The position numbers and the translations under genes are program-made. Positions 47,469 through 61,296 of a DNA stretch of 64,000 nucleotides are shown here, one piece after another (position 1 is the stretch's first letter; every line of letters starts with the position of its first letter). The stretch spans positions 192,001-256,000 of the forward strand of contig CAWJKT010000009.1 of the NCBI GenBank assembly GCA_963843375.1, written 5' to 3'. The notes beneath the pieces are model-generated. The model was given only the letters and a program-made list of their open reading frames with translations. It was not told the origin of the DNA and made no database searches. Source of the stretch: an uncultured Pseudomonadota bacterium (GTDB taxonomy: Bacteria > Oederibacteriota > Muellerivitia > Muellerivitales > Muellerivitaceae).

Positions 47469-47513
47469 AGACAATTTAAAACTTAAAATTGCTGTCCATT
47501 CAGGGTACACTCG

Positions 47514-47912
47514 GTGCTCCCCGGGGGCTTTAACAGGGCCCCGAATCCAGGGAAATCTTGGAGGCGCGGTTCCTTGTTGAAACTCAATAAAAAAGAATCC
47601 ACTTTAATCGATGATCCCCAGCGTTGCGAGGTTTGCAATACCACACTGACCCTTTATCCAAAGGATTTCAATCCTTGCCCCCATTGCCAACGGAAAATCT
47701 GCCGCCAGTGCTGGGGAGTTTCGTGGAGTACTAAAGCCTTCGCGGCGGAGAACTGCTCCCACGCCTCGGAGAATGATGGCCTTACATTGAATCCAGTGGA
47801 AGAGTCCAACCGGGGTTTTCGGATGGATTGGCCCCGTGTGATTTTCGCGCTGATTTTGGGCGTCTTGGCTATTGGGATTCTTTTATTCCTTTTAAACCTT
47901 TTCGTTTTTTAG
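47514..47912 (+). CDS. Small Cys-rich (putative Zn-binding) protein with C-terminal TM anchor (start uncertain)
   Basis: CEVC, CPHC and CRQC motifs plus a hydrophobic C-terminus. Confidence 0.6.
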   Translation: MLPGGFNRAPNPGKSWRRGSLLKLNKKESTLIDDPQRCEVCNTTLTLYPKDFNPCPHCQRKICRQCWGVSWSTKAFAAENCSHASENDGLTLNPVEESNRGFRMDWPRVIFALILGVLAIGILLFLLNLFVF

Positions 47913-50535: not shown

Positions 50536-50563
50536 AATCCAACAAGAGGACCCTTAGTGGACA
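50536..50563 (+). repeat. 28-bp site A (degenerate left arm)
   Basis: AATCCAACAAG-AGGACC-CTTAGTGGACA; same spacing as the other six sites. Confidence 0.6.
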
Positions 50564-50584
50564 GCAATTTTAAAGGGATTTGCC

Positions 50585-52207: not shown

Positions 52208-52447
52208 GTGACTAAAGTCCTGTCCCTAAAAATTAAAGGTGAAATCTTCGAGGATGTGGAAGTCCTAACCAAACGGCTTCATATGCCCCGCAACACCTAC
52301 ATCAACGAGGCGCTGGATTTTTACAACGCTTTCAACAGGCGCAAAGGGCTTCGCCAAAAACTAAAAAAAGAATCCCTGCTCACGCGAAAGAATTCCATGG
52401 ACATTCTGAGCGAGATGGAAAAACTCGAAGAATCAACCGCTGAATGA
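52208..52447 (+). CDS. Putative RHH-type antitoxin
   Basis: LSLKI...RNTYINEAL; AAGGAG RBS; stop overlaps the MazF-like toxin start. Confidence 0.8.
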   Translation: MTKVLSLKIKGEIFEDVEVLTKRLHMPRNTYINEALDFYNAFNRRKGLRQKLKKESLLTRKNSMDILSEMEKLEESTAE

Positions 52448-52788
52448 AAATCAGGAAATTTAATATTTACCTGGCCGATCTAAGCCCGCGTTTCGGCACC
52501 GAGCCTGGAAAAACGAGGCCTGTCGTCGTTCTTCAAACAAACCTTTTGAACGATAGCCTGCATCCCAGCACGATCATCTGTCCCATCAGTACCAACGTCG
52601 TTCACGGGGCAGAGATACTTCGTGTCCGCCTTCCGAAGAAGGAAACGGGCCTTCGAAAAGATTCCGATATTTTGGTCGATCAAATACGGTCCATTGATAA
52701 CCGCCGATTCGTCAAGCATTTGGGGGAATTGGGCCCGATCGATAAGGCGAAGTTGATTGAAAACCTTAAAATTCTTTTATTTGAATAA
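52444..52788 (+). CDS. PemK/MazF family endoribonuclease toxin
   Basis: LADLSPRFGTEPGKTRPVVVLQ, ICPIS and DQIRSID motifs. Confidence 0.92.
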   Translation: MKIRKFNIYLADLSPRFGTEPGKTRPVVVLQTNLLNDSLHPSTIICPISTNVVHGAEILRVRLPKKETGLRKDSDILVDQIRSIDNRRFVKHLGELGPIDKAKLIENLKILLFE

Positions 52789-52800
52789 ACCAATCAGGGT

Positions 52801-52828
52801 TGTCCACGGCGGGGACCCGGATTGGACG
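52801..52828 (+). repeat. 28-bp site D
   Basis: TGTCCACGGCG-GGGACC-CGGATTGGACG. Confidence 0.85.
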
Positions 52829-52846
52829 ATGGGGAGGACAAATATC

Positions 52847-60336: not shown

Positions 60337-60485
60337 AATTAAACCAAAACCCCAACTAGCTAAGCGGGGGAAGTTCGGCAAACTTCTGCCAAGGTAGGTG
60401 GGGAATACCCCCCCCCTTATGTCTGCTTTATTATGTAGGCTCAAGATTTTAAAATCTCTATCAACTAAAATATCTTGAATTTTAT

Positions 60486-60513
60486 TGTTCCATACGGGGA
60501 CCCGGATTGGACA
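60486..60513 (+). repeat. 28-bp site F (intron insertion site)
   Basis: TGTTCCATACG-GGGACC-CGGATTGGACA. Confidence 0.85.
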
Positions 60514-61296
60514 GCGTGCCAGGATCAAGGATGCAGCAGCCAGCAGGTGCGGTTCGATATGAACCAAGTCCTGACGGGGTAACCGCCCGAGGGCCCCGAA
60601 GTCAACCTCCGTGGCAAAGTCGAGAGGCCTTGTCCGAAACGAGGTCATAAACCTTCGAAAGGAAGGGAACAATACTACAGTCCGTAACATGAAGTGAATC
60701 CTGCCGCGTCGTGACGAGTCCGCCGAAAGGCTATAGGGGAGGCCGAGCCGCGTGTCCAACGGCGAAGGCAACAATCTCATCCTGAAACGGGATTGGGTGG
60801 GGTAAATCCTCCGGCGTATTGGGAGCGGAATGTTGGAAAGGCTGGTGCATCAACCTGGGAGATCCTACCCGTTAAAAGAGCGGCTCCTATAAGGGCGACC
60901 GAAAGGGAGACGTGACGGGAGGAAGTCGGAGGGGGAAATAGTACCGCTTAGAGGGGGAGGACAACAAAACCTCACCTGAGGGAAGGTCCCCTGCTTCAAC
61001 CATGTGCCTTCAAGAAGGGTGGCGCTGGAGAATGCCGGAAACGGCTAATAACTCTGAAGGTCAAAAGCGCGTAATCTTCAACAAGCACTATGCCGAACGG
61101 CCAAGGGAAGTAGAACCTGTAAAGCCGTCGGAGAAAAGGTTGTCGGAAAGCCGTATGATCGAAAAGGTCACGTACGGTTTGATGAGGGGGCGTTGGAAAC
61201 GAAGTGATGAGGGAACCTAGTTGGGGCACGGAACCGGAAACGGGGAAACAGATCAAGGGGCCCTCTGCACACAACCGCGCCAGCGCTCTACTCTAC
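60514..61296 (+). mobile_element. ORF-less group II intron (IIB-like), about 783 nt
   Basis: 5' GCGTG (GUGYG-like); EBS1-type hairpin GCCG-CGTGTCCAA-CGGC-GAAGGC at 60747-60769; domain V AAGCCGTATG...CACGTACGGTTT at 61148-61180 with AGC triad; 3' end ...CTCTACTCTAC; no RT ORF. Confidence 0.88.

Follow-up and report, generated by a model that had tools for sequence, protein, structure and literature searches.

A Group II Intron Without Open Reading Frame, Inserted in a Repeated 30-nt Palindrome of an Uncultured Soil Bacterium and Very Probably Guided There by Base Pairing

Introduction

Three targeting habits of bacterial group II introns are listed in the relevant passage of a review (PMC4424553, 2015), namely homing to long unique sites, insertion at terminator hairpins and insertion at integron attC sites, the last two being attributed to class IIC introns only. 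According to the passages that describe it, UHB.I2 is a class IIB intron located on the sense strand at an integron cassette site (Sonbol and Siam, 2021, PMC7923331), and an excerpt of a published report mentions truncated copies of a class E intron in an array devoid of integrase. Introns without an open reading frame (ORF) are also on record: the TeI3 introns of Thermosynechococcus elongatus are presented, in the part of the study concerned with them, as products of one deletion which are moved by the reverse transcriptases (RTs) of their relatives (Mohr et al., 2010, PMC2882425). In the present work, we describe an ORF-less group II intron of 783 nt found in the genome of an uncultured soil bacterium, within a stretch of 64,000 nt (hereafter the window; contig CAWJKT010000009.1, positions 192,001 to 256,000, assembly GCA_963843375.1). 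This intron is inserted in a copy of a 30-nt near-perfect palindrome, which stands 3′ of many genes in this bacterium. We propose that it belongs to a non-autonomous, non-IIC, IIB-like lineage and that it arrived at this place by retrohoming, a reading that we regard as very probable.

Results and Discussion

Boundaries and Ribozyme Parts of the Intron

The intron occupies positions 60514..61296 of the plus strand (5′ GCGUG ... CUCUAC 3′) has the orientation of the genes around it and separates base 29 from base 30 in one copy of the palindrome, site F. The first 29 nt of this site are found at 60485..60513 (plus strand; C9:252485-252514), with a weak left arm TTGTTCCAT... and a right arm ...GGATTGGACA; base 30 is A61297. 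Across the 5′ junction (60484-60523), one reads ...ATTGTTCCATACGGGGACCCGGATTGGACA / GCGTGCCAGG..., and across the 3′ junction ...GCTCTACTCTAC / AACAAATAATGG, the intron closing with ...CTCTAC at 61296 before the exon AACAAAT. These limits agree with an earlier, sequence-only reading of the locus, which had placed the intron directly after the TTGGACA of site F (60507-60513), with GCGTG from 60514 and the same 3′ end. The span then given (60486-61296), however, took in the site, the intron proper being 60514-61296.

Two Rfam matches passed the gathering thresholds in the 64-kb window, and both support the proposed fold: group-II-D1D4-4 at a part of domain 1 (60556..60692, plus strand, 61.6 bits for a cut-off of 49, E = 4.2e-11), and Intron_gpII (RF00029) at domains 5 and 6 (61146..61296, plus strand, 45.1 bits for a cut-off of 40). 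Domain 5 (61148..61180, plus strand) shows 13 pairs, a 2-nt bulge and an AGC triad at 61149-61151; the triad is shared by all the relatives compared, and the whole domain is identical to that of multi-copy relatives. It is followed by an extended domain 6 of about 110 nt (61184..61293, plus strand), in which the predicted fold leaves a bulged branch-point A at 61290. When 61146-61296 was folded alone (−55.6 kcal/mol, z = −3.45), A61290 was bulged, 7 nt from the 3′ end, and the basal helix of domain 6 is kept in relatives having either a short or a long domain 6. The window intron retains all the columns that are invariant across 15 aligned introns, for which the RNAalifold consensus comprises 114 pairs and shows compensatory changes at 59 of these. 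The segment 60514-61296 is an ORF-less group II intron with domain 1, domain 5 and domain 6 parts, and the ORF list contains no RT-sized ORF inside it.

Relatives start, in the same register, with GUGUG, GCGUG or UCGUG and end with ..CUCUAC or ..CUCUGC. The first and penultimate intron bases covary over 30 rows, with U...G in 24 and G...A in 5, the single discordant row being a nested copy (L032). This covariation, together with the register of the pairing described below, fixes both splice sites and leaves the 5′ splice site where it had first been placed.

Pairing Between Intron and Target

The pairings between exon-binding sites (EBS) and intron-binding sites (IBS) were read by eye from the aligned loops. 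The consensus of the 15 introns places EBS1 in a hairpin loop, which in the window is CGUGUCCAA (that is, CGTGTCCAA; 60751..60759, plus strand), closed by a GCCG/CGGC stem (60747-60750 with 60760-60763, plus strand; alignment columns 353-356/366-369) that shows compensatory changes at columns 356/366. EBS1 proper, TGTCCAA at 60753-60759, forms 7/7 pairs with IBS1, TTGGACA, the final 7 nt of the 5′ exon (60507..60513, plus strand). By simple arithmetic, an exact complement of a 7-mer is expected somewhere in 783 nt with a chance of about 5%. Nevertheless, the match goes beyond chance because the loop is homologous across the 15 introns and changes together with the target. The sequence-only reading had already taken this loop for a putative EBS1, and it was correct in this.

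Indeed, the last 7 bases of the loop pair with the last 7 exon bases and covary with them over seven intron/target combinations. Besides UGUCCAA with TTGGACA in the window intron, UGUCCAC or UGUCUAC faces GTGGACA in most relatives, whereas UGUCUAC is found with GTGGGCA and UGUCUAU with ATGGGCA in others. At non-site targets, UGUCUUA faces TATGACA in G024 (6/7 pairs) and UUCAUGC faces GCATGGG in G011; finally, CGUCGUG faces CACGACG in a second intron lineage. The EBS1 of the window intron thus appears tuned to the site sub-variant TTGGACA and not to the common GTGGACA.

The place of EBS2 is apparent in sister lineages, about 30 nt upstream of EBS1 and just before a GAAA-capped hairpin, where 5-mers complement exon positions −13 to −9: AUGGG with CCCAT, AAGGG with CCCTT, ACACC with GGTGT, GAGAG with CTCTC, and ACGGA with CCCGT (4/5 pairs). 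The sequences thus show an EBS2 for the lineage, while that of the window copy is tentative. The first base of the 3′ exon (A61297, plus strand), which is also site base 30, is presumed to be IBS3; it is an A in 29/29 readable 3′ junctions.

Copies and Insertion Points

A BLAST search of the window intron against the assembly of its own genome (G000) gave three places, all of them directly after the ...GGACA of a site. The second copy (C18:59762-59865) is identical (100%) to the window intron over its first 104 nt and is present in full length, with its own flanks, in public contigs; wherever the two copies could be compared, their identity is 100%. The third is a diverged fragment on C6 which stops after about 150 nt. 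On C18, from about 59866 onward (L002:1605-3104), the 104 intron nt are followed by a poly-T run of about 29 nt, itself followed by GC-rich sequence that does not resemble the rest; a chimeric assembly at the repeat is the probable cause. One public contig (run X5) links the 5′ flank of the C18 copy to the 3′ flank of the window copy across the intron.

Intron matches occur in 12 of the 31 genomes of the family, G000 included. Our insertion survey covered 39 distinct 5′ junctions in 8 genomes, which were classified partly by eye from the table rows. A strict full site precedes the intron at 24/39 junctions, and the right part of a site already holding a second intron at 2/39. The strict test returned "right half only" for 8/39; by eye, 6/39 have a left arm that is degenerate, displaced by an indel or interrupted by the end of a contig (L003, L048, L067 on the minus strand, L075, L080, L081), and a right-half look-alike without left arm is present in 2/39 (L051, L055). 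Four junctions (4/39) are at two other, non-palindromic targets, to which EBS1 and EBS2 are re-matched, and the remaining one (1/39) is the nested copy L032. Altogether, a recognisable site is present at 32/39 junctions, each time interrupted at the identical base. Given these 5′ junctions and the A at 29/29 3′ exon starts, the insertion point lies between site bases 29 and 30. The sequence-only reading had proposed a lineage specialised on this repeat, to be checked on further copies; those found in G000 and in 7 sister genomes bear this out, the repeat and the insertion base being in most cases those of the window copy.

The nested copy belongs to a 91%-identical relative in G027 (L021/L032, G027:C42), which forms a twintron: at the match of window position 60942/60943, it contains a further group II intron, for which a separate domain 5 is recognised. 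The RT gene of the inner intron is split into ORFs of 212 and 211 aa. This copy does not qualify as an ORF-containing parent, being itself ORF-less and invaded by the inner intron.

The Palindromic Site

The consensus of the site is a 30-nt near-perfect palindrome, TTGTCCACGACGGGGACCCGTCGTGGACAA. With up to 9 mismatches allowed, 83 sites were found in G000, spanning together about 2.5 kb of its 4.05 Mb, and none in shuffled copies of six contigs; the site is present in 26/31 genomes of the family, the reversed-pattern control giving 0. A conserved multi-copy target had been suggested by the sequence-only reading. Runs of sites sharing one orientation, with 0.5-4 kb spacing, occur on contigs C6, C9, C10 and C18. 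Among the 63 best sites, 57 are preceded by an ORF of like orientation according to crude ORF calls, at a median distance of 35 nt for these 57, and 36/63 lie at most 60 nt from the upstream stop codon. The inter-site genes of the window encode a GNAT acetyltransferase, a MazF-type toxin with a small upstream ORF, an AraC regulator and a short-chain dehydrogenase. The MazF/PemK-type toxin gene and its small upstream ORF (52208-52788) form one inter-site unit, in a style common in cassette arrays.

Two known types of repeat were considered for this site and set aside. An integron was discarded as the integron-integrase model stayed below its cut-off in 31/31 family genomes and the site measures only 30 nt. 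A system of repetitive extragenic palindromes (REP) with REP-associated tyrosine transposases (RAYT) received no support, as no Y1 transposase was found in the G000 assembly, which is 80% complete.

Could a DNA duplication simply have multiplied site and intron as one unit, or the intron have brought or created the palindrome, without any targeting? The two occupied sites of G000 share 27/30 bases, including an unusual left arm, and their intron copies are identical, as such a copying would produce. Yet, in every copy compared, the flanks diverge at the outer edge of the site and again after base +1, more than 30 different flanks are found in the 8 genomes, and G001, G004 and G010 have tens of site matches with 0 intron matches. 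We therefore hold such an origin to be extremely improbable, and it is already largely refuted.

Intron Class

The RTs of the relatives measure about 430 aa and contain RVT_1 and GIIM domains (as seen in the second lineage). They are read as endonuclease-less, because of these domains and of a length close to that of the matched endonuclease-less IIC RTs. Among solved structures, the best matches were GsI-IIC (1.8e-69) and a second IIC RT (2e-63), followed by a cyanobacterial IIB RT (1.7e-50) and LtrA (1.5e-42), and the order was the same in a repeat comparison; the best score (238 bits) practically equals the one obtained when the two local lineages are compared with each other (236 bits, 36% identity). 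The group-II-D1D4-4 model gives no hint on the class because it matched 0 of 14 control genomes.

Such RTs, and an insertion point located at the 3′ foot of a 14-bp palindrome, would suit a targeting like that of class IIC introns, in which the shape of the DNA hairpin dominates and base pairing is minor; moreover, the review cited above, in its passage on targeting, limits the use of structural motifs to class C (PMC4424553). Several observations are at odds with this. Class IIC introns would combine a stem-loop with a short IBS1 and no EBS2, but EBS1 forms here 7 bp, and both EBS1 and EBS2 covary with the target, the latter in four sister lineages. Targets without hairpin are also used: L051 and L055 follow a right-half look-alike without left arm, and four copies lie at non-palindromic targets with re-matched EBS1 and EBS2. 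Furthermore, the site variant of the window makes a poor hairpin, and IBS1 is inside the stem, so that its pairing needs an opened hairpin. The domain 5 triad of class IIC is CGC; the window intron and its relatives have AGC. Homing to attC sites, which goes with an IntI integrase, does not fit either, the integron-integrase model having 0 matches at its cut-off in the 31 family genomes. Thus, a IIC-like targeting seems very improbable to us. As judged from these sequences, the lineage appears to find its target by base pairing and not to be of class IIC, because of the 7-bp EBS1, the covarying EBS2, the copies at hairpin-less targets and the AGC triad. The sequence-only reading had called the intron IIB-like from the AGC triad and the long domain 6; both features are present, but they are insufficient alone, and the 7-bp EBS1 with the EBS2 of the sister lineages is the better argument.

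Origin of the ORF-less Form and Proposed Mobility

When compared with a 1988-nt relative (L052), positions 1-597 of the window intron align with 1-595 and positions 608-783 with 1814-1988, the deleted segment corresponding to about nt 596-1813 of the relative. From this two-block alignment, about 1.2 kb of RT gene is missing. The domain 4 remnant (60943..61145, plus strand) retains the start of the lost gene, with its ATG at 61032 and the first 13 codons (MPETANNSEGQKR), and the deletion junction lies near 61110-61121. The window intron is, on this alignment, best described as a deletion derivative of an RT/maturase-encoding intron of about 2 kb. In G024, the breakpoints of an 800-nt form without ORF, compared with its own full-length relative, almost coincide with these. 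Ten near-identical copies of this form are found at different places of G024, a genome which holds ORF-less as well as RT-encoding forms, and mobility in trans is implied by these copies.

In the mobility that we propose, a full-length relative would provide the RT in trans, and the excised lariat RNA, in complex with this RT, would reverse-splice into the top strand of the site. The target would be selected by the EBS1-IBS1 pairing, probably by EBS2-IBS2, and by a single-base pairing with the A at +1. Synthesis of the cDNA may be primed at the replication fork, where the site would be single-stranded; this priming is proposed because the RT is without endonuclease domain. The retained front of domain 4, including the RT start codon, is the putative binding site of the RT. 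Once installed, the intron could be removed by splicing from read-through transcripts, and its cost for the host would be low because it is sense-oriented in a non-coding repeat.

The following points weigh against our interpretation. Concerning the pairings, the EBS2 register of the sister lineages is unpaired in the sub-lineage of the window intron. An alternative in a shifted register joins a tentative EBS2, GAGUCC (60716..60721, plus strand, on the 5′ strand of the internal loop preceding the GAAA-capped hairpin), to a tentative IBS2, GGACCC (60498..60503, plus strand, exon −16 to −11), by 5/6 pairs; the relative L052 is altered on both sides (GUGUCC with TGACAC). EBS3 was not located in the window intron, and covariation was of no use for it because the +1 base is always A (29/29 junctions). 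With respect to the boundary consensus 5′-GUGYG ... AY-3′ quoted in a passage of Sonbol and Siam (PMC7923331), the 3′ AC fits, whereas the 5′ GCGUG departs once. Two identical 1988-nt introns starting with GCGUG (L052, L053) stand at different places in G024, and such a 5′ end is therefore compatible with mobility. Splicing of the window copy is predicted from its sequence; contigs from four public DNA runs, which gave the flanks of the second copy, contained no joint skipping the intron.

Occupancy of the targets is another difficulty. Of the four occurrences of the exact 16-nt target of the intron in G000, 2 are unoccupied. The left arm ATTGTTC (window 60485-60491, L002:1472-1478) is present at both occupied sites of G000 and at 0/12 other near-targets, which have GTTGTCC or similar. 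This common left arm is unexplained by a pure EBS/IBS targeting; it could reflect co-conversion, a position recognised by the protein, or a weakened hairpin. A further unoccupied site of the window (52800..52829, plus strand) differs in its right half from the 16-nt target solely at the last exon base (..GGATTGGACG).

Lastly, an RT-encoding relative, as called for by the sequence-only reading, was found in sister genomes (L052 type, in G024), but the G000 assembly (80% complete) contains no cognate RT gene. Its sole intron RT is that of the second lineage, 39% identical, and the window copy may for this reason be stranded. It is therefore possible, although in our opinion unlikely, that the window copy came by retrohoming and is now a dead relic, unable to splice or to move in this genome. 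The unoccupied exact targets and the third copy stopping after about 150 nt would agree with such a decay as well as the missing RT. Against this, the first two copies are identical, domain 5 is still that of the multi-copy relatives, all the invariant columns are kept, and the assembly is incomplete, repeats such as introns being badly assembled (the second copy lies at a chimeric contig junction). Retrohoming guided by base pairing remains our preferred interpretation.

Comparison With Described Introns

As far as the passages describing it allow comparison, UHB.I2 is the nearest precedent (PMC7923331). It is likewise a non-IIC intron with an AGC triad, which directly follows the hairpin site of a cassette boundary and is oriented like the cassette genes, with toxin-antitoxin genes among the cassettes and with non-consensus ends (5′-UUGCG..GU-3′ in UHB.I2, 5′-UCGUG..GC-3′ in many relatives here). 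Unlike the present case, it consists of one intron of protein class CL1 at an attC site detected by a model; here the target is a 30-nt perfect-type palindrome, and 0/31 genomes have an integron integrase. The present RT is nearer to IIC than to CL-type RTs, when solved structures only are compared, and the targeting rests on tens of copies and on covariation.

Class IIC and IIC-attC introns, as presented in the review passage (PMC4424553), share with our lineage an endonuclease-less RT, a compact ribozyme, the foot of a DNA hairpin as insertion point, a location in non-coding intergenic DNA and the use of repeated cassette-boundary sites. They differ from it by the 7-bp EBS1, the EBS2 covarying in sister lineages, the AGC triad and the copies at hairpin-less targets found here. 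Also, IIC-attC introns are described as antisense to the genes in a passage of PMC7923331, whereas the window intron is sense.

The TeI3 introns resemble ours, in the parts of the study cited (PMC2882425), by a deletion that removed most of the RT gene but left remnants of it, by near-same breakpoints across diverged subtypes, by many copies implying the RTs of relatives, by a target specificity diverging among relatives, and by an intron within an intron, as in the G027 copy. However, their host belongs to another phylum and their RT lineage looks different, the cyanobacterial IIB RT scoring below the IIC RTs; they occupy diverse sites, whereas most copies here are on one short repeated host sequence. 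Pseudomonas putida KT2440 also offers an intron beside a short intergenic palindromic repeat, the REP (Tobes and Pareja, 2006, PMC1525189), but 2/9 copies are associated with it, and the passage on these copies contains neither a fixed insertion base nor EBS matching.

Considering the open-access literature, homing to cassette sites on the sense strand by non-IIC introns is not new as a habit, having one printed precedent. What is new is the 30-nt non-integron palindrome as target, the depth of the comparative evidence, and the use of one site at different bases by several lineages.

Other Lineages on the Same Palindrome

An intron of the second lineage, 1941 nt long and located 57 kb upstream of the window (C9:135166-137106, L007:1667-3607), encodes an intact RT/maturase of 458 aa. 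It splits a site between bases 12 and 13, into TTGTCCACGACG and AGGAGCCATCGTGGACA, and its EBS1 loop fits that exon. A serine recombinase gene is located just downstream, on the other strand. Relatives of this intron are present in 8/31 genomes, and 15 of 19 junction rows follow TTGTCCACGA(C/T)G, between bases 12 and 13. Several sites of G024 hold both introns. A head-to-tail tandem of two ORF-less introns derived from the second lineage is found in G008 (L160, G008:C7), with nothing between the 3′ end of the first and the 5′ end of the second.

A third type is an ORF-less intron of 712 nt, inserted between bases 20 and 21 (L036 and L044 in G008, L042 in G011), in the arrangement ..GGGGACCCG / GCGCGCC...CUCUAC / TCGTGGACA. 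Its candidate EBS1, CGGGUC, a 6-nt complement, may lie in a stem and is not claimed.

These data lead us to a broader and tentative suggestion, more doubtful than not, in which the palindrome would be the recombination or boundary site of a non-integron cassette system, spread across one family within the candidate phylum FCPU426. Three intron lineages or more would have re-programmed their guide loops to fixed positions of it (between bases 12 and 13, 20 and 21, and 29 and 30), as dedicated parasites which may join or shuffle cassettes.

Two other features of the window were observed. A pair of 34-nt inverted repeats (47483-47516 and 50540-50573), 82% complementary and containing a half-site-like TGTCCA..GGGT, flanks a 3-kb segment with two sugar-transferase genes, shortly before the first full site of the array. 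Between 55194 and 60336, the products of three neighbouring genes are exported proteins in which long repeats rich in Thr and Pro occur (ACNCCN, a 6-base periodicity). The signal-peptide starts of two of them (57720 and 59008) are 80% identical, and one malectin domain and one set of NHL repeats were recognised.

Conclusion

We report a non-IIC intron lineage which, by ordinary base pairing, has very probably adopted as its target a short palindrome repeated in the host and distinct from attC, two other lineages being on other bases of the same palindrome. The matched guide and target variants constitute a natural series for studying how intron specificity changes, and the covariation between G..A and U..G is clean comparative evidence for a coupling of the first and penultimate intron bases. 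The lineage also illustrates the spread of a non-autonomous intron by way of a neutral target that exists in many copies. If the palindrome is indeed the boundary of a cassette system, introns may have a role in the joining or shuffling of cassettes, via reverse transcription or recombination between intron copies, like that proposed for IIC-attC introns. Finally, the introns independently mark the palindrome as conserved, accessible and probably prone to become single-stranded, which is useful for understanding the cassette arrays of FCPU426.

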